The position numbers and the translations under genes were made by a program. From sequence record MZ375356.1: DNA of 64,000 bases; one strand, given 5' to 3'. This DNA is from Escherichia phage T4. Positions 2-63,663 of the stretch are shown in pieces. How positions within the stretch are numbered: position 1 is the first letter of the stretch; each line of letters begins with the position of its first letter. Below the pieces are notes generated by a model that saw only the letters and a program-made list of their open reading frames with translations, did not search any database and was not told where the DNA came from.

Positions 2-1570
2 TCTGTTAATCCATATAACTTCGTTTCTACCGAAGACGTTATTGCTATTCGTGATAAAAATAACCAATATTTTCCGCGTTTAAAATTGGCCCAGGGACGT
101 ATAGTAAGAACTGAAATCATTTATGATAAATTAACACCTATTATCATTTATGATAAAAATATTGATAGAAACCAGGTTAAATTATACGTTGATGGAGCGG
201 AATGGATTAACTGGACGAGAAAGTCAATGGTTCATGCTGGTTCAACATCAACGATTTACTATATGCGTGAAACTATTGATGGAAACACTGAATTCTATTT
301 TGGTGAAGGTGAAATTTCTGTTAATGCTTCTGAAGGAGCTTTGACCGCTAATTATATCGGAGGTATTAAACCTACTCAGAACTCTACGATTGTTATTGAG
401 TACATTAGTACTAATGGTGCTGACGCGAACGGAGCAGTCGGATTTTCATACGCAGATACATTAACAAATATAACTGTCATCAATATTAATGAAAATCCAA
501 ACGATGATCCAGATTTTGTTGGGGCAGATGGAGGCGGTGATCCAGAAGATATTGAGCGTATTCGCGAATTGGGTACTATTAAACGCGAAACCCAACAACG
601 ATGCGTAACTGCGACTGACTATGATACATTCGTTTCAGAGAGATTTGGTTCTATTATTCAAGCTGTTCAGACTTTCACTGATTCTACTAAACCTGGGTAT
701 GCATTTATTGCTGCTAAACCTAAATCAGGATTGTATTTAACTACCGTACAGCGTGAAGATATTAAAAATTATCTCAAAGACTATAATTTAGCTCCTATTA
801 CGCCATCAATTATTTCTCCTAATTATCTTTTTATTAAGACTAATTTAAAAGTCACATATGCTTTAAATAAACTGCAAGAATCCGAACAGTGGCTTGAAGG
901 TCAAATAATTGATAAAATTGATCGCTATTATACCGAAGATGTAGAAATTTTTAACTCGTCTTTCGCTAAATCTAAGATGTTGACATATGTAGATGATGCA
1001 GATCATTCTGTCATTGGTTCATCAGCGACTATTCAAATGGTTCGTGAAGTACAAAACTTCTATAAAACGCCTGAAGCGGGTATTAAATACAATAATCAAA
1101 TAAAAGATCGTTCTATGGAATCTAATACGTTTTCATTTAATTCTGGACGAAAGGTTGTAAATCCTGATACTGGTTTAGAAGAAGATGTATTATATGACGT
1201 TCGTATAGTATCAACAGACCGAGATTCTAAAGGAATTGGTAAAGTTATTATTGGTCCATTTGCTTCTGGCGATGTTACAGAAAATGAAAACATTCAGCCG
1301 TATACAGGCAACGATTTTAACAAATTAGCAAATTCTGATGGACGCGACAAATACTATGTTATCGGTGAAATAAATTATCCAGCTGATGTGATTTATTGGA
1401 ATATCGCTAAAATTAATTTAACATCTGAAAAATTTGAAGTTCAGACCATTGAATTATATTCTGACCCAACCGATGATGTTATCTTTACTCGCGATGGTTC
1501 ACTGATTGTATTTGAAAATGACTTACGTCCACAATACTTAACTATCGATTTGGAGCCTATATCACAATGA
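2..1570 (+). CDS. 6: baseplate wedge protein gp6, C-terminal ~522 codons (5' end lies upstream of the window)
   Basis: Frame open from nt 2 with no stop; ATGA overlap with the next gene at 1567-1570; position immediately before gp7 in the T4 late order. Confidence 0.8.
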   Translation, partial: SVNPYNFVSTEDVIAIRDKNNQYFPRLKLAQGRIVRTEIIYDKLTPIIIYDKNIDRNQVKLYVDGAEWINWTRKSMVHAGSTSTIYYMRETIDGNTEFYFGEGEISVNASEGALTANYIGGIKPTQNSTIVIEYISTNGADANGAVGFSYADTLTNITVININENPNDDPDFVGADGGGDPEDIERIRELGTIKRETQQRCVTATDYDTFVSERFGSIIQAVQTFTDSTKPGYAFIAAKPKSGLYLTTVQREDIKNYLKDYNLAPITPSIISPNYLFIKTNLKVTYALNKLQESEQWLEGQIIDKIDRYYTEDVEIFNSSFAKSKMLTYVDDADHSVIGSSATIQMVREVQNFYKTPEAGIKYNNQIKDRSMESNTFSFNSGRKVVNPDTGLEEDVLYDVRIVSTDRDSKGIGKVIIGPFASGDVTENENIQPYTGNDFNKLANSDGRDKYYVIGEINYPADVIYWNIAKINLTSEKFEVQTIELYSDPTDDVIFTRDGSLIVFENDLRPQYLTIDLEPISQ

Positions 1571-4500
1571 CAGTAAAAGCACCTTCAGTCACTAGTCTCA
1601 GAATTTCCAAGTTATCCGCAAATCAGGTGCAAGTACGCTGGGATGACGTTGGTGCTAATTTCTACAAAATAGTAGAAATCGCTGAGACAAAAACAAACTC
1701 GGGGGAAAATCTCCCGAGTAATCAATATCGTTGGATTAATTTAGGATATACAGCAAATAATAGTTTCTTTTTTGATGATGCTGATCCATTAACAACATAC
1801 ATTATTAGAGTAGCCACAGCTGCGCAAGATTTTGAGCAGTCTGATTGGATTTATACCGAAGAGTTTGAAACTTTTGCTACAAATGCTTATACATTTCAAA
1901 ACATGATTGAAATGCAATTAGCCAATAAATTCATTCAGGAAAAATTTACTCTTAATAATTCTGATTATGTTAATTTTAATAATGATACTATAATGGCTGC
2001 ATTGATGAATGAATCATTCCAATTCAGCCCATCGTATGTTGATGTTTCATCAATAAGTAATTTTATTATTGGTGAAAATGAGTATCATGAAATACAAGGT
2101 TCTATTCAGCAAGTATGTAAGGATATTAACCGAGTTTATTTGATGGAATCAGAAGGAATTCTATATCTTTTTGAGCGCTATCAACCTGTAGTTAAAGTAT
2201 CCAATGATAAAGGACAAACCTGGAAAGCTGTAAAGCTCTTCAATGACCGTGTAGGATATCCTTTATCTAAGACAGTATATTACCAATCTGCGAACACAAC
2301 ATACGTTCTAGGATACGACAAGATTTTCTATGGCCGCAAATCTACTGATGTTAGATGGTCAGCCGATGATGTCAGATTTAGTTCTCAGGATATAACATTT
2401 GCTAAACTTGGCGACCAATTACATCTAGGATTTGATGTAGAAATTTTTGCCACTTACGCGACTTTACCAGCGAATGTATACCGCATTGCAGAAGCTATTA
2501 CTTGCACCGATGATTACATTTACGTTGTCGCCAGAGACAAAGTTAGATACATAAAAACGAGTAATGCACCTATAGATTCTGATCCATTATCTCCAACATA
2601 TTCGGAAAGACTTTTTGAACCTGATACCATGACTATAACCGGAAATCCTAAAGCAGTATGCTATAAAATGGATTCTATCTGTGATAAAGTTTTTGCTCTT
2701 ATTATTGGTGAAGTTGAAACATTAAATGCTAATCCTAGAACATCAAAAATAATTGATTCCACTGATAAAGGAATATATGTTTTAAATCATGACGAAAAAA
2801 CATGGAAAAGAGTTTTTGGTAATACCGAAGAAGAAAGAAGACGTATTCAACCCGGATATGCGAATATGTCAACTGACGGTAAATTAGTTTCTCTGTCTTC
2901 GAGTAATTTTAAATTTTTAAGTGATAATGTTGTTAATGACCCTGAAACTGCAGCAAAATATCAGTTAATTGGCGCTGTTAAATATGAATTTCCTCGTGAA
3001 TGGTTAGCTGATAAGCATTATCATATGATGGCATTTATAGCGGATGAAACATCTGATTGGGAGACTTTTACTCCTCAACCAATGAAATACTACGCAGAAC
3101 CATTCTTTAACTGGTCTAAAAAATCTAACACACGTTGTTGGATAAACAACTCTGATAGAGCTGTGGTAGTTTATGCTGATTTAAAATACACTAAAGTTAT
3201 AGAAAATATTCCGGAAACATCACCAGATAGATTAGTTCATGAATACTGGGATGATGGTGATTGCACTATAGTAATGCCAAATGTCAAATTCACTGGATTT
3301 AAAAAATACGCATCAGGAATGCTTTTCTATAAAGCCTCCGGTGAAATAATTTCTTACTATGATTTTAACTATCGTGTGAGAGATACAGTAGAAATTATTT
3401 GGAAGCCAACTGAAGTATTTTTAAAAGCATTTTTACAAAACCAAGAGCATGAGACTCCTTGGTCACCAGAAGAAGAGCGTGGATTAGCTGACCCTGATTT
3501 AAGACCATTAATTGGCACAATGATGCCTGATTCTTATTTGTTACAGGATTCGAATTTTGAGGCATTTTGCGAAGCATATATTCAGTATCTTTCTGATGGA
3601 TATGGAACTCAATACAATAATTTACGAAATTTAATTCGTAACCAATATCCACGAGAAGAGCACGCATGGGAATATTTGTGGTCAGAGATATATAAAAGAA
3701 ACATTTATTTAAATGCTGATAAACGCGATGCTGTTGCGAGATTCTTTGAATCACGTAGCTATGATTTTTATTCTACTAAAGGAATTGAAGCATCATACAA
3801 GTTTCTTTTTAAAGTTCTTTATAATGAAGAAGTTGAAATTGAAATTGAATCTGGGGCTGGTACTGAATATGATATAATCGTTCAATCTGATTCTTTGACT
3901 GAAGATTTAGTAGGACAAACGATTTATACGGCAACAGGAAGATGTAATGTTACTTATATAGAAAGAAGCTATTCTAATGGTAAATTGCAATGGACCGTAA
4001 CTATTCATAATCTTTTGGGACGATTAATTGCTGGTCAAGAAGTTAAAGCAGAAAGACTCCCTAGTTTTGAAGGCGAAATTATTCGTGGGGTTAAAGGAAA
4101 GGATTTGCTTCAAAACAATATAGACTATATTAATAGAAGTAGATCATACTATGTAATGAAAATTAAATCCAATTTACCTTCTTCCCGCTGGAAATCTGAC
4201 GTTATTCGTTTTGTTCATCCAGTAGGATTTGGATTTATAGCAATTACCCTTTTAACAATGTTTATTAATGTTGGTTTAACTCTTAAACATACAGAGACTA
4301 TAATTAATAAATACAAAAACTATAAATGGGATTCTGGATTGCCTACTGAATATGCCGACAGAATAGCTAAATTAACTCCAACCGGTGAAATTGAGCATGA
4401 TTCAGTAACAGGCGAAGCAATTTATGAGCCTGGCCCAATGGCTGATGTAAAATATCCTCTTCCTGATGACTATAATGCTGAAAATAATAATTCAATATTT

Positions 4501-4665
4501 CAAGGTCAATTGCCGTCTGAACGACGTAAATTAATGAGTCCTTTATTTGATGCATCTGGAACAACATTTGCGCAATTTAGAGATTTAGTTAATAAACGTC
4601 TAAAAGATAATATAGGAAATCCAAGAGACCCTGAAAATCCAACACAGGTTAAAATAGATGAATGA
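1567..4665 (+). CDS. 7: baseplate wedge protein gp7
   Basis: 1032-aa ORF, the length of T4 gp7; conserved position 6-7-8. Confidence 0.9.
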   Translation: MTVKAPSVTSLRISKLSANQVQVRWDDVGANFYKIVEIAETKTNSGENLPSNQYRWINLGYTANNSFFFDDADPLTTYIIRVATAAQDFEQSDWIYTEEFETFATNAYTFQNMIEMQLANKFIQEKFTLNNSDYVNFNNDTIMAALMNESFQFSPSYVDVSSISNFIIGENEYHEIQGSIQQVCKDINRVYLMESEGILYLFERYQPVVKVSNDKGQTWKAVKLFNDRVGYPLSKTVYYQSANTTYVLGYDKIFYGRKSTDVRWSADDVRFSSQDITFAKLGDQLHLGFDVEIFATYATLPANVYRIAEAITCTDDYIYVVARDKVRYIKTSNAPIDSDPLSPTYSERLFEPDTMTITGNPKAVCYKMDSICDKVFALIIGEVETLNANPRTSKIIDSTDKGIYVLNHDEKTWKRVFGNTEEERRRIQPGYANMSTDGKLVSLSSSNFKFLSDNVVNDPETAAKYQLIGAVKYEFPREWLADKHYHMMAFIADETSDWETFTPQPMKYYAEPFFNWSKKSNTRCWINNSDRAVVVYADLKYTKVIENIPETSPDRLVHEYWDDGDCTIVMPNVKFTGFKKYASGMLFYKASGEIISYYDFNYRVRDTVEIIWKPTEVFLKAFLQNQEHETPWSPEEERGLADPDLRPLIGTMMPDSYLLQDSNFEAFCEAYIQYLSDGYGTQYNNLRNLIRNQYPREEHAWEYLWSEIYKRNIYLNADKRDAVARFFESRSYDFYSTKGIEASYKFLFKVLYNEEVEIEIESGAGTEYDIIVQSDSLTEDLVGQTIYTATGRCNVTYIERSYSNGKLQWTVTIHNLLGRLIAGQEVKAERLPSFEGEIIRGVKGKDLLQNNIDYINRSRSYYVMKIKSNLPSSRWKSDVIRFVHPVGFGFIAITLLTMFINVGLTLKHTETIINKYKNYKWDSGLPTEYADRIAKLTPTGEIEHDSVTGEAIYEPGPMADVKYPLPDDYNAENNNSIFQGQLPSERRKLMSPLFDASGTTFAQFRDLVNKRLKDNIGNPRDPENPTQVKIDE

Positions 4666-5662
4666 TTCAAGTGTTATCTATCGTGCGATAGTTACTTCAA
4701 AATTTAGAACAGAAAAAATGTTGAATTTTTATAATTCAATTGGAAGTGGTCCGGATAAAAACACTATCTTTATCACATTTGGAAGATCAGAACCGTGGTC
4801 ATCAAATGAAAATGAGGTGGGCTTTGCCCCACCTTATCCAACCGATTCTGTATTAGGCGTAACTGACATGTGGACGCATATGATGGGAACAGTAAAAGTT
4901 CTTCCATCAATGCTTGATGCTGTTATTCCTCGCAGAGATTGGGGAGATACTAGATATCCGGATCCATACACATTTAGAATTAACGATATTGTAGTGTGTA
5001 ACTCAGCTCCTTACAACGCTACTGAATCAGGCGCTGGTTGGTTAGTGTATCGTTGTTTAGATGTTCCTGATACCGGAATGTGTTCAATAGCATCTTTAAC
5101 TGATAAAGATGAATGCCTTAAGTTAGGTGGAAAATGGACTCCTTCTGCTAGGTCAATGACTCCGCCTGAAGGTCGAGGAGATGCTGAAGGAACAATTGAA
5201 CCCGGAGACGGGTATGTGTGGGAATATCTATTTGAGATTCCGCCTGATGTATCTATAAATAGATGCACGAATGAATATATCGTGGTTCCTTGGCCTGAGG
5301 AATTAAAAGAAGACCCGACTAGATGGGGATATGAAGATAATCTCACTTGGCAACAAGATGATTTTGGATTAATTTACCGTGTTAAGGCAAATACTATCCG
5401 TTTTAAAGCATATTTAGATTCAGTTTATTTTCCTGAAGCTGCATTGCCAGGAAATAAAGGATTTAGACAAATATCAATAATCACGAATCCTCTTGAAGCT
5501 AAAGCTCATCCAAATGACCCAAACGTTAAAGCTGAAAAGGATTATTATGACCCAGAAGATTTAATGAGGCATTCGGGTGAAATGATTTATATGGAAAATA
5601 GGCCACCTATTATTATGGCAATGGATCAAACAGAAGAAATCAATATTCTGTTTACATTTTAA
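4658..5662 (+). CDS. 8: baseplate wedge protein gp8
   Basis: 334-aa ORF matching T4 gp8 length; ATGAATGA overlap with gp7. Confidence 0.9.
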   Translation: MNDSSVIYRAIVTSKFRTEKMLNFYNSIGSGPDKNTIFITFGRSEPWSSNENEVGFAPPYPTDSVLGVTDMWTHMMGTVKVLPSMLDAVIPRRDWGDTRYPDPYTFRINDIVVCNSAPYNATESGAGWLVYRCLDVPDTGMCSIASLTDKDECLKLGGKWTPSARSMTPPEGRGDAEGTIEPGDGYVWEYLFEIPPDVSINRCTNEYIVVPWPEELKEDPTRWGYEDNLTWQQDDFGLIYRVKANTIRFKAYLDSVYFPEAALPGNKGFRQISIITNPLEAKAHPNDPNVKAEKDYYDPEDLMRHSGEMIYMENRPPIIMAMDQTEEINILFTF

Positions 5663-5667
5663 ATTAA

Positions 5668-5690
5668 GGGAGCCCATGGGCTCCCTTTTT
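5668..5690 (+). terminator. rho-independent terminator after gene 8
   Basis: Perfect 18-nt palindrome gggagcccatgggctccc followed by TTTTT. Confidence 0.7.
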
Positions 5691-5693
5691 CTT

Positions 5694-5701
5694 TATAAAT
5701 A
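5694..5701 (+). promoter_or_regulatory. T4 late promoter (TATAAATA) for gene 9
   Basis: Exact TATAAATA about 25 nt upstream of the gp9 ATG. Confidence 0.7.
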
Positions 5702-5725
5702 CTATAAACTCATAAGGAAACCGCT

Positions 5726-6592
5726 ATGTTCATTCAAGAACCAAAGAAATTGATTGATACCGGCGAAATTGGTAACGCTTCTACTGGTGATATCTTATTC
5801 GACGGTGGTAATAAAATTAATAGTGATTTTAACGCAATTTATAATGCGTTTGGCGATCAGCGTAAAATGGCAGTAGCAAATGGCACTGGAGCAGATGGTC
5901 AAATTATCCATGCTACTGGATATTATCAAAAACACTCTATTACAGAGTACGCAACTCCAGTGAAAGTTGGCACTAGACATGATATTGATACCTCTACTGT
6001 AGGTGTTAAAGTTATCATTGAAAGAGGCGAACTCGGCGATTGTGTTGAATTCATTAACTCTAATGGATCAATATCAGTTACTAATCCTTTGACAATTCAA
6101 GCTATTGATTCAATTAAAGGTGTTTCAGGTAATTTAGTAGTAACTAGCCCATATAGTAAAGTTACTTTACGCTGTATTTCATCTGATAATTCTACGTCGG
6201 TTTGGAATTATTCTATTGAAAGTATGTTTGGACAAAAGGAATCACCAGCTGAAGGTACATGGAATATTTCTACATCTGGATCAGTTGACATTCCATTATT
6301 TCATCGTACTGAATACAATATGGCTAAATTGCTAGTTACGTGCCAATCGGTAGATGGAAGAAAAATTAAAACAGCAGAAATAAATATTCTTGTGGATACT
6401 GTTAATTCAGAGGTAATTTCTTCTGAATATGCTGTCATGCGAGTTGGGAATGAAACCGAAGAAGACGAAATCGCTAATATTGCATTTAGTATTAAAGAAA
6501 ATTATGTAACGGCGACTATAAGTTCTTCAACTGTCGGTATGAGAGCAGCAGTTAAAGTTATCGCTACGCAGAAAATCGGGGTGGCTCAATAA
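5726..6592 (+). CDS. 9: baseplate wedge / long tail fibre socket protein gp9
   Basis: 288-aa ORF matching T4 gp9 length and position. Confidence 0.9.
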   Translation: MFIQEPKKLIDTGEIGNASTGDILFDGGNKINSDFNAIYNAFGDQRKMAVANGTGADGQIIHATGYYQKHSITEYATPVKVGTRHDIDTSTVGVKVIIERGELGDCVEFINSNGSISVTNPLTIQAIDSIKGVSGNLVVTSPYSKVTLRCISSDNSTSVWNYSIESMFGQKESPAEGTWNISTSGSVDIPLFHRTEYNMAKLLVTCQSVDGRKIKTAEINILVDTVNSEVISSEYAVMRVGNETEEDEIANIAFSIKENYVTATISSSTVGMRAAVKVIATQKIGVAQ

Positions 6593-8400
6593 TGAAACAA
6601 AATATTAATATCGGTAATGTTGTAGATGATGGTACCGGTGACTACCTGCGTAAAGGTGGTATAAAAATAAATGAAAACTTTGATGAGCTTTATTATGAAC
6701 TCGGTGATGGTGATGTTCCATATTCAGCCGGTGCCTGGAAAACTTATAATGCTTCATCAGGACAAACATTAACAGCAGAATGGGGAAAATCATACGCTAT
6801 TAATACATCTTCTGGAAGAGTGACTATAAATCTTCCAAAGGGTACAGTTAATGATTACAACAAGGTAATTAGAGCTAGAGACGTATTTGCTACATGGAAC
6901 GTCAACCCAGTTACACTAGTAGCTGCTTCCGGCGATACGATTAAAGGGTCTGCAGTACCAGTTGAAATTAATGTTCAATTCAGCGATTTAGAACTAGTGT
7001 ATTGTGCCCCAGGACGTTGGGAATATGTCAAAAATAAACAAATTGACAAAATTACCAGTTCAGACATTAGTAATGTAGCTCGCAAAGAATTTTTAGTTGA
7101 AGTTCAAGGACAAACAGACTTTTTAGATGTTTTCCGTGGAACTAGTTATAATGTAAATAACATCAGAGTAAAACATCGTGGTAACGAATTGTATTACGGC
7201 GATGTGTTTAGCGAAAACAGCGATTTTGGCTCTCCAGGCGAAAATGAAGGAGAACTGGTTCCTCTTGATGGATTTAACATTCGATTAAGACAGCCTTGTA
7301 ATATTGGTGACACTGTTCAAATTGAAACATTTATGGATGGTGTATCACAGTGGAGAAGTTCATATACAAGACGTCAAATTAGATTGTTAGATTCAAAATT
7401 AACGTCAAAAACTTCTTTAGAAGGAAGCATTTACGTTACTGATTTATCAACAATGAAATCAATTCCATTTTCTGCTTTTGGATTAATTCCAGGAGAACCT
7501 ATTAATCCTAACTCTCTTGAGGTTCGTTTTAACGGGATTTTACAGGAATTGGCTGGCACAGTTGGAATGCCATTATTTCATTGTGTTGGTGCCGATTCAG
7601 ACGATGAAGTAGAATGCTCTGTTTTAGGTGGAACTTGGGAACAATCTCATACCGATTATTCAGTTGAAACTGATGAAAACGGCATACCAGAAATTTTACA
7701 TTTCGATAGAGTATTTGAGCATGGTGACATTATCAATATCACCTGGTTTAATAATGATTTGGGTACATTATTAACAAAAGATGAGATTATTGATGAAACT
7801 GATAATCTCTATGTATCGCAAGGACCTGGAGTAGATATTTCTGGTGATGTAAATTTAACAGACTTCGATAAAATTGGTTGGCCAAATGTAGAAGCAGTTC
7901 AATCTTATCAACGCGAATTTAATGCTGTTTCAAATATCTTTGATACGATTTATCCTATTGGAACTATATATGAAAACGCTGTTAATCCAAATAACCCTGT
8001 TACATATATGGGATTCGGCTCATGGAAATTATTTGGGCAAGGAAAAGTTTTAGTTGGATGGAATGAAGATATTTCGGACCCTAACTTTGCTCTAAATAAC
8101 AACGATTTAGATTCGGGTGGAAATCCTTCACATACCGCAGGTGGAACAGGTGGTTCTACTTCTGTTACATTGGAAAATGCTAATCTTCCTGCAACTGAAA
8201 CAGATGAAGAAGTTCTAATAGTTGATGAAAATGGATCAGTCATTGTTGGTGGGTGTCAATACGATCCAGATGAATCCGGTCCAATTTACACTAAATACCG
8301 TGAAGCTAAAGCATCTACTAACTCTACTCACACTCCGCCAACATCAATAACTAACATTCAACCATATATTACAGTTTATCGTTGGATAAGGATTGCATAA
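6592..8400 (+). CDS. 10: baseplate wedge protein gp10
   Basis: 602-aa ORF matching T4 gp10; start overlaps gp9 stop. Confidence 0.9.
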
Positions 8401-9059
8401 TGAGTTTACTTAATAATAAAGCGGGAGTTATTTCCCGCTTAGCCGATTTTCTTGGTTTTAGACCTAAAACTGGCGACATTGATGTAATGAATCGTCAATC
8501 AGTCGGGTCAGTGACAATATCTCAATTAGCGAAAGGATTTTATGAACCAAACATAGAATCAGCTATTAATGACGTTCATAATTTTTCTATAAAAGACGTT
8601 GGCACAATTATTACTAATAAAACTGGTGTTTCTCCTGAGGGTGTTTCTCAAACTGATTATTGGGCATTTTCTGGAACTGTAACAGACGATTCTCTTCCTC
8701 CGGGTTCTCCTATTACGGTATTAGTATTTGGTCTTCCAGTTTCAGCAACAACTGGAATGACGGCAATTGAGTTTGTTGCAAAAGTTCGCGTTGCACTACA
8801 AGAAGCTATTGCGTCATTTACTGCTATCAATTCATATAAAGACCATCCAACTGATGGTAGTAAATTAGAAGTTACTTATTTAGATAATCAAAAACATGTA
8901 TTAAGCACATATTCTACATATGGAATAACTATTTCCCAAGAAATTATATCTGAGTCTAAGCCTGGCTATGGTACATGGAATTTATTGGGCGCACAAACTG
9001 TAACTTTAGATAATCAGCAGACTCCTACAGTATTTTATCATTTTGAGAGAACAGCATGA
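8400..9059 (+). CDS. 11: baseplate wedge protein gp11 (short tail fibre attachment)
   Basis: ATG at 8400 overlapping the gp10 stop gives 219 aa beginning MSLLNNKAG, as in T4 gp11; the ORF track start at 8382 is a non-ATG upstream codon. Confidence 0.88.
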
Positions 9060-10639
9060 GTAATAATACATATCAACACGTTTCTAATGAATCTCGTTAT
9101 GTAAAATTTGATCCTACCGATACGAATTTTCCACCGGAGATTACTGATGTTCAGGCTGCTATAGCAGCCATTTCTCCTGCTGGAGTAAATGGAGTTCCTG
9201 ATGCATCGTCAACAACAAAGGGAATTCTATTTCTTGCCACTGAACAGGAAGTTATAGATGGAACTAATAATACCAAAGCAGTTACACCAGCAACGTTGGC
9301 AACAAGATTATCTTATCCAAATGCAACTGAAACTGTTTACGGATTAACAAGATATTCAACCAATGATGAAGCCATTGCCGGAGTTAATAATGAATCTTCT
9401 ATAACTCCAGCTAAATTTACTGTCGCCCTTAATAATGCGTTTGAAACGCGAGTTTCAACTGAATCCTCAAATGGTGTTATTAAAATTTCATCTCTACCGC
9501 AAGCATTAGCTGGTGCAGATGATACTACTGCAATGACTCCATTAAAAACACAGCAGTTAGCTATTAAATTAATTGCGCAAATTGCTCCTTCTGAAACCAC
9601 AGCTACCGAATCGGACCAAGGTGTTGTTCAATTAGCAACAGTAGCGCAGGTTCGTCAGGGAACTTTAAGAGAAGGCTATGCAATTTCTCCTTATACGTTT
9701 ATGAATTCATCTGCTACTGAAGAATATAAAGGCGTAATTAAATTAGGAACACAATCAGAAGTTAACTCGAATAATGCTTCTGTTGCGGTTACTGGCGCAA
9801 CTCTTAATGGTCGTGGTTCTACGACGTCAATGAGAGGCGTAGTTAAATTAACTACAACCGCCGGTTCACAGAGTGGAGGCGATGCTTCATCAGCCTTAGC
9901 TTGGAATGCTGACGTTATCCACCAAAGAGGTGGTCAAATTATCTATGGAACACTCCGCATTGAAGACACATTTACAATAGCTAATGGTGGAGCAAATATT
10001 ACGGGTACCGTCAGAATGACTGGCGGTTATATTCAAGGTAACCGCATCGTAACACAAAATGAAATTGATAGAACTATTCCTGTCGGAGCTATTATGATGT
10101 GGGCCGCTGATAGTCTTCCTAGTGATGCTTGGCGCTTCTGCCATGGTGGAACTGTTTCAGCGTCAGATTGTCCATTATATGCTTCTAGAATTGGAACAAG
10201 ATATGGCGGAAACCCATCAAATCCTGGATTGCCTGACATGCGTGGTCTTTTTGTTCGTGGTTCTGGTCGTGGTTCTCACTTAACAAATCCAAATGTTAAT
10301 GGTAATGACCAATTTGGTAAACCTAGATTAGGTGTAGGTTGTACCGGTGGATATGTTGGTGAAGTACAGAAACAACAGATGTCTTATCATAAACATGCTG
10401 GCGGATTTGGTGAGTATAATGATTCTGGGGCATTCGGTAATACCCGTAGATCAAATTTTGTTGGTACACGTAAAGGACTTGACTGGGATAACCGTTCATA
10501 CTTCACCAATGACGGATATGAAATTGACCCAGAATCACAACGAAATTCCAAATATACATTAAATCGTCCTGAATTAATTGGAAATGAAACACGTCCATGG
10601 AACATTTCTTTAAACTACATAATTAAGGTAAAAGAATGA
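9056..10639 (+). CDS. 12: short tail fibre protein gp12
   Basis: 527-aa ORF matching T4 gp12; ATGA overlaps at both ends. Confidence 0.9.
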
Positions 10640-12099
10640 CAGATATTGTACTGAATGACTTACCATTCGTTGACGGCCCTCCTGCAGAGGGCCAGAGCCG
10701 CATTTCCTGGATTAAAAACGGCGAAGAAATATTAGGAGCTGACACACAGTATGGAAGTGAAGGCTCAATGAATAGACCTACGGTTTCTGTACTAAGAAAT
10801 GTTGAAGTTCTTGATAAAAACATTGGAATACTTAAAACATCTTTAGAAACCGCAAATAGTGATATTAAAACAATTCAGGGCATCTTAGATGTATCTGGTG
10901 ATATTGAAGCTTTGGCCCAAATAGGTATCAATAAAAAGGATATTTCTGACCTCAAAACGCTAACCAGTGAACACACAGAAATATTAAATGGAACTAATAA
11001 TACGGTTGACAGTATTCTTGCTGATATTGGTCCATTTAACGCCGAGGCCAACTCTGTATACAGAACGATCAGAAATGATTTACTGTGGATAAAGCGTGAA
11101 CTTGGACAATACACTGGTCAAGATATTAATGGTCTTCCTGTTGTAGGAAATCCTAGTAGTGGAATGAAGCATCGCATTATTAATAATACTGATGTCATCA
11201 CTTCGCAGGGAATACGTTTAAGCAAATTAGAAACAAAATTTATTGAATCTGATGTAGGTTCTTTGACCATTGAAGTTGGTAATCTTCGTGAAGAGCTTGG
11301 ACCGAAACCACCATCATTTTCACAGAACGTTTATAGTCGTTTAAATGAAATTGACACTAAACAGACAACAGTTGAGTCTGACATTAGTGCTATTAAGACC
11401 TCAATAGGATATCCAGGAAATAATTCGATTATCACGAGTGTTAATACAAACACTGATAATATTGCATCTATTAATTTAGAGCTAAATCAAAGTGGAGGTA
11501 TTAAACAGCGTTTAACCGTTATTGAAACTTCCATTGGTTCAGATGATATTCCTTCGAGTATTAAAGGTCAAATCAAAGATAATACAACTTCAATCGAATC
11601 TCTAAATGGAATCGTCGGTGAAAACACTTCATCTGGCTTAAGAGCGAATGTTTCATGGTTAAACCAAATTGTTGGAACTGATTCTAGCGGTGGACAACCT
11701 TCTCCTCCTGGGTCTCTTTTAAACCGAGTTTCTACAATTGAAACTTCTGTTTCAGGCTTGAATAACGATGTTCAAAACCTACAAGTAGAGATTGGTAATA
11801 ACAGCACAGGAATTAAAGGGCAAGTTGTAGCGTTAAATACTTTAGTAAATGGAACTAATCCAAACGGTTCAACTGTTGAAGAGCGCGGATTAACCAATTC
11901 AATAAAAGCTAACGAAACTAACATTGCATCAGTTACACAAGAAGTGAATACAGCTAAAGGCAATATATCTTCTTTACAAGGTGATGTTCAAGCTCTCCAA
12001 GAAGCCGGTTATATTCCTGAAGCTCCAAGAGATGGGCAAGCTTACGTTCGTAAAGATGGCGAATGGGTATTGCTTTCTACCTTTTTATCACCAGCATAA
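10636..12099 (+). CDS. wac: fibritin (whisker) Wac
   Basis: 487-aa ORF; C-terminal foldon-like motif [27 protein letters not shown]; heptad-rich middle region. Confidence 0.92.
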
Positions 12100-12102
12100 C
12101 AT

Positions 12103-12118
12103 GGGGCCGCAAGGCCCC
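12103..12118 (+). other. GC stem-loop with GNRA-type loop (ggggcc-GCAA-ggcccc) between wac and gene 13
   Basis: Inverted repeat read directly; no strong U tract, so more likely a processing or stability hairpin than a terminator. Confidence 0.5.
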
Positions 12119-12130
12119 AAAGGATTTTAA

Positions 12131-13832
<1,702 letters not shown>

Positions 13833-13873
13833 TAAATATTATAAACTAATTAAAGCCCGGATTAGGAGAAGTC

Positions 13874-17011
<3,138 letters not shown>

Positions 17012-17042
17012 ATATATTAAAGCATATTAAAGAGGATTAAAA

Positions 17043-19022
17043 ATGACTTTATTATCTCCGGGCATTGAGCTCAAAGAAACTACGGTTCAAAGCACCGTAG
17101 TTAATAACTCTACTGGTACAGCAGCTTTGGCCGGTAAATTCCAGTGGGGTCCTGCTTTTCAGATTAAACAGGTTACAAATGAAGTAGATTTAGTTAATAC
17201 TTTTGGTCAACCAACCGCTGAAACTGCTGACTATTTTATGTCTGCGATGAATTTCTTGCAGTACGGAAATGACTTACGAGTAGTTCGTGCTGTTGATAGA
17301 GATACCGCTAAAAACTCATCGCCAATTGCTGGTAATATTGAATACACAATTTCTACCCCAGGTAGTAGCTATGCGGTTGGAGATAAAATCACGGTCAAAT
17401 ATGTTTCAGATGATATTGAAACTGAAGGTAAAATTACTGAAGTAGACGCAGATGGAAAAATTAAGAAAATTAATATTCCTACTGCAAAAATTATCGCTAA
17501 AGCGAAAGAAGTCGGTGAATATCCAACACTAGGTTCTAACTGGACTGCGGAAATTTCTTCATCTTCCTCTGGTTTAGCTGCAGTAATAACTCTTGGAAAA
17601 ATTATTACTGATTCTGGTATTTTATTAGCTGAAATTGAAAATGCTGAAGCTGCTATGACAGCGGTTGACTTTCAAGCAAATCTTAAAAAATATGGAATTC
17701 CAGGAGTAGTAGCGCTTTATCCAGGCGAATTAGGCGATAAAATTGAAATTGAAATCGTATCTAAAGCTGACTATGCAAAAGGAGCTTCTGCATTACTCCC
17801 AATTTATCCAGGTGGTGGTACTCGTGCATCTACTGCTAAAGCAGTGTTTGGATATGGACCGCAAACTGATTCACAGTACGCTATTATAGTTCGTCGTAAT
17901 GATGCTATTGTTCAAAGCGTTGTTCTTTCAACTAAGCGTGGTGAAAAAGATATTTACGATAGTAACATCTATATCGATGACTTTTTCGCAAAAGGTGGTT
18001 CAGAATATATTTTTGCAACTGCACAAAACTGGCCAGAAGGCTTCTCTGGAATTTTAACTCTGTCTGGTGGATTATCATCAAATGCTGAAGTAACAGCAGG
18101 AGATTTGATGGAAGCTTGGGACTTCTTTGCTGACCGTGAATCTGTTGACGTTCAACTGTTTATTGCAGGTTCTTGTGCCGGTGAATCTTTAGAAACAGCA
18201 TCTACTGTCCAAAAACACGTCGTTTCAATTGGGGATGCTCGCCAAAATTGCTTAGTATTGTGCTCTCCTCCGCGTGAAACTGTAGTTGGAATTCCTGTAA
18301 CCCGTGCTGTTGATAACTTAGTCAATTGGAGAACTGCGGCAGGTTCATACACTGATAATAACTTTAATATCAGTTCAACCTATGCAGCAATTGATGGTAA
18401 CTATAAGTATCAGTATGACAAATATAATGATGTGAATCGTTGGGTTCCATTAGCAGCTGATATTGCTGGTTTATGCGCAAGAACTGATAACGTATCTCAG
18501 ACTTGGATGTCTCCAGCTGGTTATAATCGTGGTCAGATTCTTAACGTTATTAAACTTGCTATTGAAACTCGCCAGGCTCAGCGCGACCGTTTATACCAAG
18601 AAGCTATCAACCCGGTAACCGGTACAGGTGGTGATGGTTACGTATTGTATGGTGATAAAACAGCTACTTCTGTTCCTTCTCCATTTGATCGTATTAACGT
18701 TCGTCGTCTGTTTAATATGTTGAAAACGAATATCGGACGTAGTTCAAAATATCGTTTGTTCGAATTAAACAACGCGTTTACTCGTTCATCATTCCGCACA
18801 GAAACTGCCCAGTACTTACAGGGAATTAAAGCTCTCGGTGGAATTTATGAATATCGTGTAGTTTGCGATACAACAAATAACACTCCGTCAGTAATTGATA
18901 GAAATGAGTTTGTTGCAACATTCTACATCCAACCGGCTAGAAGCATTAACTACATTACCTTAAACTTCGTAGCAACTGCTACTGGTGCAGATTTCGATGA
19001 GTTAACTGGTCTTGCTGGTTAA
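17043..19022 (+). CDS. 18: tail sheath protein gp18
   Basis: 659-aa ORF matching T4 gp18. Confidence 0.92.
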   Translation: MTLLSPGIELKETTVQSTVVNNSTGTAALAGKFQWGPAFQIKQVTNEVDLVNTFGQPTAETADYFMSAMNFLQYGNDLRVVRAVDRDTAKNSSPIAGNIEYTISTPGSSYAVGDKITVKYVSDDIETEGKITEVDADGKIKKINIPTAKIIAKAKEVGEYPTLGSNWTAEISSSSSGLAAVITLGKIITDSGILLAEIENAEAAMTAVDFQANLKKYGIPGVVALYPGELGDKIEIEIVSKADYAKGASALLPIYPGGGTRASTAKAVFGYGPQTDSQYAIIVRRNDAIVQSVVLSTKRGEKDIYDSNIYIDDFFAKGGSEYIFATAQNWPEGFSGILTLSGGLSSNAEVTAGDLMEAWDFFADRESVDVQLFIAGSCAGESLETASTVQKHVVSIGDARQNCLVLCSPPRETVVGIPVTRAVDNLVNWRTAAGSYTDNNFNISSTYAAIDGNYKYQYDKYNDVNRWVPLAADIAGLCARTDNVSQTWMSPAGYNRGQILNVIKLAIETRQAQRDRLYQEAINPVTGTGGDGYVLYGDKTATSVPSPFDRINVRRLFNMLKTNIGRSSKYRLFELNNAFTRSSFRTETAQYLQGIKALGGIYEYRVVCDTTNNTPSVIDRNEFVATFYIQPARSINYITLNFVATATGADFDELTGLAG

Positions 19023-28716: not shown

Positions 28717-29271
28717 TATGATAATGATACTTCATTAGAAGTAACGCTTAGTGCATCATAATCTGTCGCGGTTACTTGGGCTACGCATTTAATTCTTTTT
28801 ACTCCACTTGTAGTTGGAGTATAGCTAAATGTAGAGTTAGTTTCTCCACCAACTTGTGAATCATCTACATACCACTGATACGTAGCAGATGCTCCATCAG
28901 GTTGAGAAGCTAAGGCAGCAGTAAATTGAACTGGGGTTCCAATCACTCCAGCCGCAGGACTAGCAGGAGTTACGGCTAAGGTAGTCGTCTGTGTCTTATT
29001 TTTAACTGTGATAGTTGTTGTCGCTTCAGCCGTTTCCGGGCCTCCTTCAGAAAGTGTATTTGTTGCAACTACTTTAATAGTCTTTTGACCGGCAGGTCCT
29101 TTTAGCATAACTAAAAGTTGCTTCAGCTCCATCTTGTGGAACATTATCTACGCTCCAAGCATATGTAATAGTTCCGCCTCCAGTTTGACCACTGGGTGTA
29201 GCAGTAAACTGCTTAGTTTCATCAATAACCCCTGTAGGTGTTTTAGGAGTTATATCAACTGTAAAAGTCAT
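28716..29271 (-). pseudogene. hoc: outer capsid protein Hoc, frame-disrupted and lacking the C-terminal half
   Basis: Ig-like N-terminal ORF (29074-29271, MTFTVDITPKTPTG...) and a second Ig-like ORF (28716-29144) in another frame; 556 nt covers about 185 codons, versus about 376 aa for T4 Hoc. Confidence 0.8.
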
Positions 29272-30009: not shown

Positions 30010-30538
30010 ATGTACCACTTTGTATATGAAACAACAAATCTAATAAATGGTAAAAAGTATATAGGAAAGCACTCTACTGATGACTTGAATGATGGTTACC
30101 TTGGTTCCGGTAAGGCAATTCAGCAGGCTATAAAGAAATATGGTGAAAACAATTTCTCTAGAACAATACTAAAAGAGTTTAAAACTTCCGAAGAAGCGTA
30201 CATGTATGAAGAAGAAATTATAACTCCTGAACTAATAAAAAGCAAAAATTATAATATGAAACCTGGTGGAATTGGTGGAATTGGTGGAATTGTTATGACT
30301 ACAGATGTTATAGCAAAGATGAAAGAATCTTCCGCTAAAAGATTTGAAAACTCACCGGGCACGGTATTAGGTAAAACTTGTTACTAATGGAACTAAAAAT
30401 ATTTTTATTAAACCTGGAGAACTTGTTCCAGAAGGATTTGTAAAAGGGATGGTTCATCCTAATAGAAAGTCCAGAAAAGGATGTAAAGTCAAACCGACTA
30501 CCACAGGAACTTTTTGGGTCAATAATGGCGCAAAATAA
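30010..30538 (+). pseudogene. segE: GIY-YIG homing endonuclease SegE, frame-disrupted
   Basis: 125-aa ORF with GIY-YIG motif (KKYIGKHSTD...GYLGSG) stops at 30387; the C-terminal continuation (TNGTKNIFIKPGELVPEGFVKG...) runs in the +1 frame to 30538; 529 nt is not a multiple of 3. Confidence 0.75.
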
Positions 30539-30629
30539 ATTAATACAACCAGACGGTATTATTCCCGACGGATTTATTAAAGGTCGTCTCATGAAAAGAG
30601 ATTCTAAAGGCAAATTTAGTAAGGCAATT

Positions 30630-60936: not shown

Positions 60937-61165
60937 ATTGTTTTTCCGTTAAAACAGTAATATCGTAGTAACAGTCAGAAGAAGTTTTAACTGTGGAAAT
61001 TTTATTATCAAAATACTCACGAGTCATTTTATGAGTATAGTATTTTTTACCATAAATGGTAATAGGCTGTTCTGGTCCTGGAACTTCTAACTCGCTTGGG
61101 TTAGGAAGTGTAAAAAGAACTACACCAGAAGTATCTTTAAATCGTAAAATCATATATCCTCGCAA
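60890..61165 (-). CDS. hypothetical 91-aa protein (nrdA.2 position)
   Basis: ORF overlapping the next gene by 47 nt. Confidence 0.5.
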
Positions 61166-61173
61166 TAATAAAA

Positions 61174-61485
61174 TTACACCGCCATCTTTCCTTTAATAGG
61201 AGGGTGTGATACATAGTTGTTAAGAACGAAATCTTTAGGCCTAAGTTTAAGAACATATTTTAATTGTTCTTTAGTAGAAAGATATCGGAATTTATAAGGT
61301 AGACCACTTATTACCAGCTCACAAAGCTCTTTAGGTTCACGCCTCAAAATTTCTTTACATTGTTCTACGTGATTCATATAGATATGAGTATTACCACCAG
61401 AAAATATCAAATCCCCTGGAATAAGATTACACATCTTAGCTACAATATGAACTAACGTAGCATATGACGCAATATTAAACGGTAG
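61174..61485 (-). CDS. td: thymidylate synthase, exon 2
   Basis: Begins [16 protein letters not shown]..., completing the conserved DVFLG|LPFNIASYA motif; exons total 861 nt (286 aa). Confidence 0.92.
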
Positions 61486-62493
61486 CATTATGTTCAGATA
61501 AGGTCGTTAATCTTACCCCGGAATTATATCCAGCTGCATGTCACCATGCAGAGCAGACTATATCTCCAACTTGTTAAAGCAAGTTGTCTATCGTTTCGAG
61601 TCACTTGACCCTACTCCCCAAAGGGATAGTCGTTAGGCATTTATGTAGAACCAATTCCATTTATCAGATTTTACACGATAAGTAACTAATCCAGACGAAA
61701 TTTTAAAATGTCTAGCTGCATCTGCTGCACAATCAAAAATAACCCCATCACATGAAATCTTTTTAATATTACTAGGCTTTTTACCTTTCATCTTTTCTGA
61801 TATTTTAGATTTAGTTATGTCTGAATGCTTATGATTAAAGAATGAATTATTTTCACCTGAACGATTTCTGCATTTACTACAAGTATAAGCAGAAGTTTGT
61901 ATGCGAACACCGCACTTACAAAACTTATGGGTTTCTGGATTCCAACGCCCGTTTTTACTTCCGGGTTTACTGTAAAGAGCTTTCCGACCATCAGGTCCAA
62001 GTTTAAGCATCTTAGCTTTAACAGTTTCAGAACGTTTCTTAATAATTTCTTCTTTTAATGGATGCGTAGAACATGTATCACCAAACGTTGCATCAATATT
62101 GTATCCATTAATTTTAGAAAGCTCTTTAATCCAAAAATTTTCTCGTTCAATAATCAAATCTTTCTCATATGGAATTTCTTCCAAAATAGAACATAAACAC
62201 ATTACCATGTTTGTTAAAAGACCTCTGAAGTTTTATAGAAGAATGGCATCCTTTTTCTAAATCTTTAAAATGCCTCTTCCATCTCTTTTCAAAATCTTTA
62301 GCACTTCCTACATATACTTTATTGTTTAAAGTATTTTTAATCTGATAAATTCCGCTTTTCATAAATACCTCTTTAAATATAGAAGTATTTATTAAAGGGC
62401 AGTCCTACAATTTAGCACGGGATTGTCTACTAGAGAGGTTCCCCGTTTAGATAGATTACAAGTATAAGTCACCTTATACTCAGGCCTCAATTA
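61486..62493 (-). mobile_element. group I self-splicing intron in td (1008 nt here) carrying I-TevI
   Basis: Minus strand: exon ...CTTGGGT | TAATTGAGGCCTGAGTATAAGGTGAC... to ...ACATAATG | CTACCG; the 5' sequence is recognised as the td intron. Confidence 0.9.
61633..62362 (-). pseudogene. I-TevI: GIY-YIG homing endonuclease I-TevI, frame-disrupted
   Basis: N-terminal ORF MKSGIYQIKNTLNNKVYVGSAKDFEKRWKRH...NKHGNVF then a frame change; the C-terminal ORF carries the zinc finger CKCGVRIQTSAYTCSKC and DNA-binding domain; 730 nt is not a multiple of 3. Confidence 0.8.

Positions 62494-63663
<1,170 letters not shown>

Follow-up and report, generated by a model that had tools for sequence, protein, structure and literature searches.

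The open reading frame (ORF) of the homing endonuclease I-TevI lies within the td group I intron of phage T4 and is flanked, in the stretch of DNA considered here (64,000 nucleotides, referred to as the window), by td exons identical to those of T4. The frame itself is damaged, which raises the question of how this gene came to be broken, and of what its breakage means for the enzyme and for the intron that carries it. An original prediction, made from the letters alone, had proposed a frameshift and two single-codon deletions, and had taken them as a sign that the gene of the homing endonuclease was genuinely diverging or decaying. The lesions are indeed present, but their interpretation has to be changed: the breakage of I-TevI in this genome is an unplanned by-product of CRISPR genome reduction in the laboratory, a phenomenon that has already been published (PMC9825161).

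The three deletion junctions were called by alignment to NC_000866.4, to the resequenced T4 genome MT984581.1 and to OL964745.1, and their coordinates are collected in Table 1 with those of the surrounding features. Within the I-TevI ORF exactly three differences from wild-type T4 were found, all of them indels at the places foreseen, and the wild-type sequence and intron length that the prediction used for comparison are correct. The first lesion changes the + strand from ACATTCAAAC to ACATAAAC and the coding strand from GTGTTTGAATGT to GTGTTTATGT. Alignment of the whole intron to that of T4 bears out the indels and leaves the splicing elements untouched; its length is 1008 nt, compared with 1016 nt in MT984581.1, and all 8 missing bases (2 + 3 + 3, as had been reckoned) fall within the ORF. 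NC_000866.4 has one additional A in the td intron (window position 62400), which is absent from every resequenced T4 examined.

Table 1. Layout of the td locus and of the interrupted I-TevI frame in the window, with the candidate SpCas9 protospacers that overlap the three deletions.
Feature	Position in window	Strand	Remarks
td exon 2, including stop codon	61174..61485	-	identical to MT984581.1
td group I intron, 1008 nt	61486..62493	-	splice junctions read from sequence
Intron 3' part, downstream of the ORF, structured ribozyme region	61486..61632	-	147 nt identical to wild type
Predicted I-TevI pseudogene, ATG (62362) to original stop (61633), 730 nt	61633..62362	-	wild type 738 nt
Out-of-frame 191-aa ORF, I-TevI residues 58-245 minus N83 and A92	61633..62208	-	putative
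3-bp deletion junction, Ala92 lost, NIADA to NIDA	62093/62094	-	alignment; position ambiguous by 1-2 bp
3-bp deletion junction, Asn83 lost, ELNSKI to ELSKI	62118/62119	-	alignment
N-terminal 65-aa ORF, I-TevI residues 1-56 plus 9 out-of-frame residues	62165..62362	-	ORF list, alignment
2-bp deletion junction, codon E57 loses GA, frame shifted beyond residue 56	62194/62195	-	alignment
Intron 5' part, upstream of the ORF	62363..62493	-	131 nt identical to wild type
td exon 1	62494..63042	-	identical to MT984581.1
Candidate protospacer TGTGTTTGAATGTTCTATTT, PAM TGG	overlaps 62194/62195		2-bp deletion at protospacer positions 12-13
Candidate protospacer GAGCTTAATTCTAAAATTAA, PAM TGG	overlaps 62118/62119		Asn83 deletion at protospacer positions 12-15
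Candidate protospacer AATATTGCTGATGCAACGTT, PAM TGG	overlaps 62093/62094		Ala92 deletion at protospacer positions 11-15

In wild-type I-TevI (245 aa), Pfam assigns residues 3-90 to the GIY-YIG domain, 149-179 to a zinc finger and 192-242 to the DNA-binding domain, with NUMOD3 at 179-201 just under its cutoff; in the PDB, residues 1-97 are covered by 1MK0 and 1LN0, and residues 130-245 by 1I3J. The GIY-YIG module has been described as a unit of 92 amino acids with a catalytic Arg in motif B, Glu in motif D and Asn in motif E, and the DNA-binding domain also drives autorepression, its operator overlapping a late promoter (PMC2988022). In the allele of the window no single polypeptide holds the complete module with these three residues, nor is the nuclease domain in frame with the linker, the zinc finger and the DNA-binding domain, since they occupy separate frames. 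A proper start is found only for the product of 65 residues, which matches positions 2-43 of the 78 in the GIY-YIG profile and lacks the catalytic Glu75 and Asn90, as well as the linker, the zinc finger and the DNA-binding domain. The 191-aa ORF spans the linker and matches I-TevI_ZnF, I-TevI_DNA-bd and, just under the cutoff, NUMOD3, with no GIY-YIG match in Pfam. Since the 65-residue peptide is devoid of motifs D and E and of the DNA-binding parts, both cleavage and autorepression would be lost, and I-TevI is here predicted to be a pseudogene. An exact look-up of the two fragments in a protein collection gave no match, possibly because other start codons were chosen by the annotators.

As regards the intron, the td splice sites, the exon junction sequences and both the 5' and the 3' ribozyme segments are identical to those of wild-type T4, and the spliced frame (exon 1 plus exon 2) encodes an intact Td of 286 aa. 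The segment upstream of the ORF is known to hold the 5' ribozyme elements. To the same segment the promoter/operator and the translational control region of I-TevI have been assigned (PMC2988022). A search of 61000-63000 against Rfam gave no match at the gathering threshold; a permissive search returned Intron_gpI at 61534-61764 below it (40.3 bits, the gathering score being 50; E=1.5e-8), for which reason the integrity of the intron was judged through its identity to wild type. The shortfall in score is most likely due to the roughly 730-nt ORF insertion. Given that the lesions are confined to codons 57-92, and that ribozyme parts, splice sites and exons are unchanged, splicing should be unaffected; on the strength of the DNA, the td intron of this clone should still splice but would no longer home.

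The I-TevI region was compared with the best 40 of 624 matching phage records. Among these, a shortened I-TevI region was found only in OL964745.1 ("Mutant Escherichia phage T4 clone T4_7t1"), which is also the closest of the records listed for the region. The window and OL964745.1 have in common the three I-TevI deletions, the frd frameshift, an identical 579-bp hoc deletion and most of the other lesions, and each of them carries private ones as well; from this combination it follows that they are sister clones and not the same genome. Another clone of the same deposit series, T4_3t3 (OL964735.1), retains an intact I-TevI of 738 nt and has no small deletions in this region. For OL964745 no citing paper was found, and the sole citation of OL964735 is in an unrelated preprint, which used it as a mapping reference.

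Protein matches narrow the assignment further. The gp7, gp12 and gp29 proteins of the window match accessions of the QZB897xx and UJD20xxx series exactly, and its exact gp48 has one protein accession only, QZB89801.1, which belongs to a 151,790-bp T4 record. The only other place on record for this gp48 variant is a short Logan contig assembled from run SRR22215992, which has the gp48 T48I variant together with a wild-type gp29 site and comes from a further member of the lineage. In the annotation notes, the mutant clones bear the locus-tag prefix T4583L, which occurs in one paper only in the literature (PMC9825161). That paper describes T4_583L as the smallest T4 mutant of the study, with 151,790 bp (Yuan, Shi, Jiang and Ma, Nucleic Acids Research 2022; PMC9825161). 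The window has private lesions and protein variants in common with the deposited clones of this experiment, known as CiPGr, and is most likely, to judge by its protein matches, clone T4_583L or a close sibling. The split frd products are on record only under T4_7t1 accessions, and the missing QZB counterpart may be an annotation difference only.

Two differences from MT984581.1 are common to all three CiPGr clones and are therefore taken as polymorphisms of the parental stock. These are a 6-nt hairpin-loop inversion in gene 7 (window 1666-1671, CTAC-TATTTT-GTAG to CTAC-AAAATA-GTAG, changing YYFV to YKIV) and a 12-bp insert, AAGCTTTGGCCC, in wac (window 10907).

In CiPGr, phage is passaged 300-600 times on E. 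coli with SpCas9 and a pooled plasmid library, the SpCas9 plasmid also carrying lambda-Red (PMC9825161). Each cassette of the library consists of one 20-nt spacer and two 50-bp homology arms and is designed for the removal of 100 bp or of an entire gene; a non-essential gene had up to eight spacers, and genes that are structural or known to be essential were left out of the targeting (PMC9825161). In addition to the planned deletions, 1322 unplanned deletions of one or two bases were scored as gene disruptions in the population read data for T4, the only phage in which they were seen, and the authors ascribe "some" of them probably to CRISPR escape (PMC9825161).

The lesions of I-TevI are part of a wider pattern, for which all counts refer to the comparison of the window with MT984581.1. 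The rest of the window is close to T4 (about 99.8% identity over 24 kb) and the differences are nearly all small deletions: 32 of 1-3 bp (23 of 2 bp, six of 3 bp and three of 1 bp), spanning window positions 25447-63671, which are accompanied by the 579-bp hoc deletion, two tandem-repeat expansions and 12 substitutions. With the exception of one in-frame codon loss in the essential gp29, all of the small deletions fall in dispensable genes (segD, hoc, segE, uvsY.-1, 30.2, 30.3, 30.6, 30.7, 30.8, 31.2, cd.3, cd.4, I-TevIII, I-TevI and frd) or in intergenic DNA (six of the 32), at a density of about 2 per kb of dispensable DNA. No small deletion occurs in the first 25 kb of the window (structural genes 6-23), and of the 26 frameshifting deletions not one lies in a gene of known function, a class that makes up 75% of the sequence (P about 2e-16, or about 1e-9 if only the classical essential genes are considered).

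The three deletions in the 738-bp I-TevI ORF fit the background density (Poisson P=0.18), and a clustering test within accessory DNA gave no excess over chance. A process aimed specifically at the homing endonuclease is ruled out by this even spread, and the notion of a decay peculiar to I-TevI fails with it, the same type of lesion being found at background density in about 15 accessory genes. As to their composition, 83% of the 2-bp deletions consist of A/T only (43% expected), and 48% drop one unit of a tandem dinucleotide repeat, often of TATA type (18% expected); A/T bias and repeat-unit loss together point to replication or repair slippage. Base substitutions are absent from the same 15.5 kb of dispensable DNA.

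Several of these genes deserve a description of their own. Among the free-standing GIY-YIG endonuclease genes, segD is broken by one 2-bp deletion (window 25447), and segE (window 30253-30625) by one 3-bp and three 2-bp deletions; the latter gene also contains a 9-bp tandem repeat, TGGTGGAAT, which has grown from two to three copies in the window only. T4_7t1 has four small deletions in segG and one in mobE. The 579-bp deletion in hoc (junction at window 28725-28726, MT984581.1 110188-110766) removes the C-terminal half and the stop codon, has the same junction in T4_7t1 and belongs to neither of the designed deletion types (100 bp or whole gene); an additional 2-bp deletion lies further upstream in the gene (window 29105). 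The dihydrofolate reductase gene frd (window 63039-63618) is divided into ORFs of 109 and 87 aa by a 2-bp TA deletion in TATATA (about 63329), a lesion also present in OL964745.1, where alone both fragments are on record. The I-TevIII ORF of the nrdB intron, already defective, has lost a further 2 bp close to its start (window about 56812, MT984581.1 position 138875), a lesion common to T4_7t1, as is the in-frame 3-bp deletion in gp29, the tail length determinator, at about codon 491 (window 38319). Finally, in the intergenic DNA between uvsY and gene 25 (window 33307), the 10-bp unit TGTTATTGGA has gained two copies, and three in T4_7t1; this gain is slippage in the insertion direction.

The substitutions have a different distribution, since accessory DNA holds none of the 12. 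The nine that were checked (window 365-18246, 38770 and 54516) are all missense and all in structural or known-function genes: gp6 L260I, gp7 F259S, A399T and G960D, gp12 H454Y and D455N, gp18 D402N, gp48 T48I and rnlA Y298H. This set suggests adaptive change in baseplate and tail, in line with the Ka/Ks values above 1 reported for T7 and seszw (PMC9825161).

Two other ideas on the origin of the differences were abandoned. A lineage treated with a chemical frameshift mutagen, such as an acridine, was dropped on finding the CiPGr paper. In T4_7t1, ac and gp52 are the same as in MT984581.1, and the DNA polymerase, gp32 and clamp match known T4 proteins according to the annotation; literature searches found no such study. 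Furthermore, dinucleotide swaps relative to NC_000866.4 had been considered as a mutational signature, but they disappear when MT984581.1 is used and are therefore old reference errors, as is the additional A at window 62400; at the sites concerned (window 58734-5, 58943-4, 62949-50 and 63599-600), the window, MT984581.1 and the mutant clones all disagree with NC_000866.4.

CRISPR escape could account for the I-TevI lesions in the following way. As T4 was passaged hundreds of times under SpCas9 and pooled guides, up to eight per non-essential gene, the dispensable I-TevI would have gained three independent deletions (2, 3 and 3 bp), each in a different candidate SpCas9 protospacer. A loss of 2-3 bp at protospacer positions 11-15 would shift the PAM-distal third out of register, plausibly blocking cleavage, and the use of several guides per gene would explain why lesions were repeated in an I-TevI that was already dead (five in T4_7t1). 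These lesions would persist owing to the lack of selection for I-TevI in single-phage culture. The first of them breaks the frame after residue 56, so that nuclease and autorepression would be lost, and the intron would presumably still splice without homing.

The match between lesions and protospacers is of uneven value. In I-TevI, candidate NGG protospacers are overlapped by all three lesions of the window and by four of the five known in the lineage, and this overlap makes escape plausible. Moreover, for each of the three lesions of the window there is a separate coding-strand protospacer, followed by a TGG PAM, whose positions 11-15 contain the entire deletion, an arrangement with a post hoc P of about 0.002, the position window having been picked after the data were seen. 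Nevertheless, 73% of random sites in the I-TevI gene also overlap some NGG protospacer, and over the whole window 22 of the 32 small deletions overlap an NGG protospacer or its PAM, compared with 78% for random sites; overlap alone is thus weak evidence, and another process must also make such deletions. Neither a generic PAM-proximity test, for Cas9 and Cas12a, nor a refined one detected enrichment, the power of both being low; they neither establish escape nor dismiss it. Cas9 escapes usually map to the PAM or seed region, and positions 11-15 correspond neither to these nor to the cut site. Taken together, an escape origin of the three I-TevI lesions is likely, and we hold it probable that the window derives from T4 of the CiPGr experiment, that its I-TevI lesions are CRISPR escapes, and that the activity of the enzyme has been lost with splicing kept. 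CRISPR escape alone does not account for the deletion pattern of the whole window, and the process is only partly explained.

The most serious alternative accepts the laboratory origin and holds that the deletions are untargeted: collateral slippage events, arising for example in the recombination-dependent repair of Cas9 breaks in T4 or through lambda-Red expression, would have drifted neutrally in dispensable DNA without being escapes. The ten small deletions that touch neither an NGG protospacer nor its PAM, an overall overlap not above random, the six intergenic deletions and the excess of A/T-only and repeat-unit losses all agree with it. So do the expansion of the 9- and 10-bp tandem repeats, the fact that one of the two extra I-TevI lesions of T4_7t1 overlaps no protospacer, the presence of lambda-Red on the spCas9 plasmid and the authors' own crediting of escape with only "some" deletions (PMC9825161). 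Against this stand the three separate TGG-PAM protospacers of I-TevI, hit at a similar position, and the up to eight guides per gene, which naturally explain multiple independent lesions in a dead gene; in addition, the lack of substitutions in the same 15.5 kb of neutral DNA speaks against general mutagenesis. As an account of I-TevI, untargeted slippage is in our judgement unlikely.

A bolder proposal concerns the deletions as a whole, those of I-TevI included, which might not be simple protospacer escapes and might instead record a mutational process peculiar to T4 and set off by persistent Cas9 cutting, namely error-prone, slippage-biased synthesis in the course of recombination-dependent break repair. 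We put it forward tentatively, as a possibility with the balance still against it. If it were true, mostly A/T dinucleotides would be lost in and around the targeted genes, at about 2 per kb and with substitutions not raised, and CRISPR pressure on a phage with modified DNA would cause collateral mutagenesis, which T4 shows and T7, seszw and selz do not.

Escape in I-TevI, which remains the preferred reading, presupposes that the deletions are real. A sequencing or assembly artefact, favoured for example by AT-rich low-complexity or hydroxymethylcytosine-modified DNA and leaving a gene that is in truth intact, might be suspected because A/T-only dinucleotides and short tandem repeats are error-prone contexts on some platforms, and because both genomes with the lesions come from one laboratory and one pipeline. 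The distribution of the deletions tells another story: their avoidance of known-function genes and of the first 25 kb rules out random consensus error, and the sole one to touch an essential gene preserves the frame. T4_3t3, a clone of that series, is free of such deletions in this region, the lesions shared by the window and T4_7t1 and those private to each are arranged as in a genealogy, and the authors found deletions of this kind in their population read data (PMC9825161). An artefact is accordingly very improbable, and the original prediction was right to set random read error aside.

Natural degeneration, which the same prediction favoured, can be given even less credit. In the cycle of Goddard and Burt, the fixation of an intron is followed by loss of selection on its homing endonuclease, which decays; I-TevI would have decayed in this way in a wild T4-like phage. 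A frameshift with in-frame codon losses is typical of a decaying homing endonuclease gene, and T4 already offers a natural example in the truncated I-TevIII (PMC2988022). However, the rest of the window is T4 itself, the shortened I-TevI was found among the 40 best records only in a laboratory clone, the gene is intact in T4_3t3, the other accessory genes and the intergenic DNA carry the same type of lesion at equal density, and the lineage has a documented history of passage under Cas9 (PMC9825161), so that divergence or decay in nature seems scarcely tenable. That the three deletions are designed edits is hardly credible at all: although I-TevI is non-essential and was probably in the target set, the design removes 100 bp or a whole gene by means of 50-bp homology arms (PMC9825161), and a deletion of the designed 100-bp type in T4_3t3 (MT984581.1 133375-133474) looks quite different.

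In practical terms, the window should be treated as an engineered and heavily passaged T4, in which broken accessory genes reflect laboratory history and not natural evolution; I-TevI, I-TevIII, segD, segE, hoc, frd and the 30.x and cd.x genes are to be read as laboratory-broken. The allele also confirms in a concrete case that I-TevI is dispensable for T4 growth. A wider interest lies in why T4 under Cas9 pressure gains almost only A/T-biased deletions of 2-3 bp, a third of them off NGG sites.

Compared with wild-type T4 I-TevI (NP_049849.3; structures 1MK0/1LN0 and 1I3J), the gene of the window occupies the same locus and intron, is identical in nucleotides save for the 8 missing bases and has all domains still recognisable in its DNA; it differs in that the frame is broken after residue 56, N83 and A92 are gone and no ORF joins the domains. 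The I-TevI of T4_7t1 (OL964745.1) has the same three deletions but two further ones of 2 bp (MT984581.1 144132 and 144384), and its genome is without about a dozen lesions private to the window. The unplanned deletions of CiPGr (Yuan et al. 2022, PMC9825161) come from the same phage and the same experiment, belong to the same class of lesion and likewise produce premature stops; they were described, however, as deletions of one or two bases, whereas the window also has six of 3 bp, including the pair in I-TevI, and one third of its lesions lie outside any NGG protospacer. Finally, I-TevIII of the T4 nrdB intron provides the closest natural parallel, as an inactive intron-encoded endonuclease ORF whose intron still splices (PMC2988022, PMC2790892), with the difference that the truncation of I-TevIII arose naturally and is fixed in T4 stocks, whereas the I-TevI lesions described here come from documented laboratory passage.
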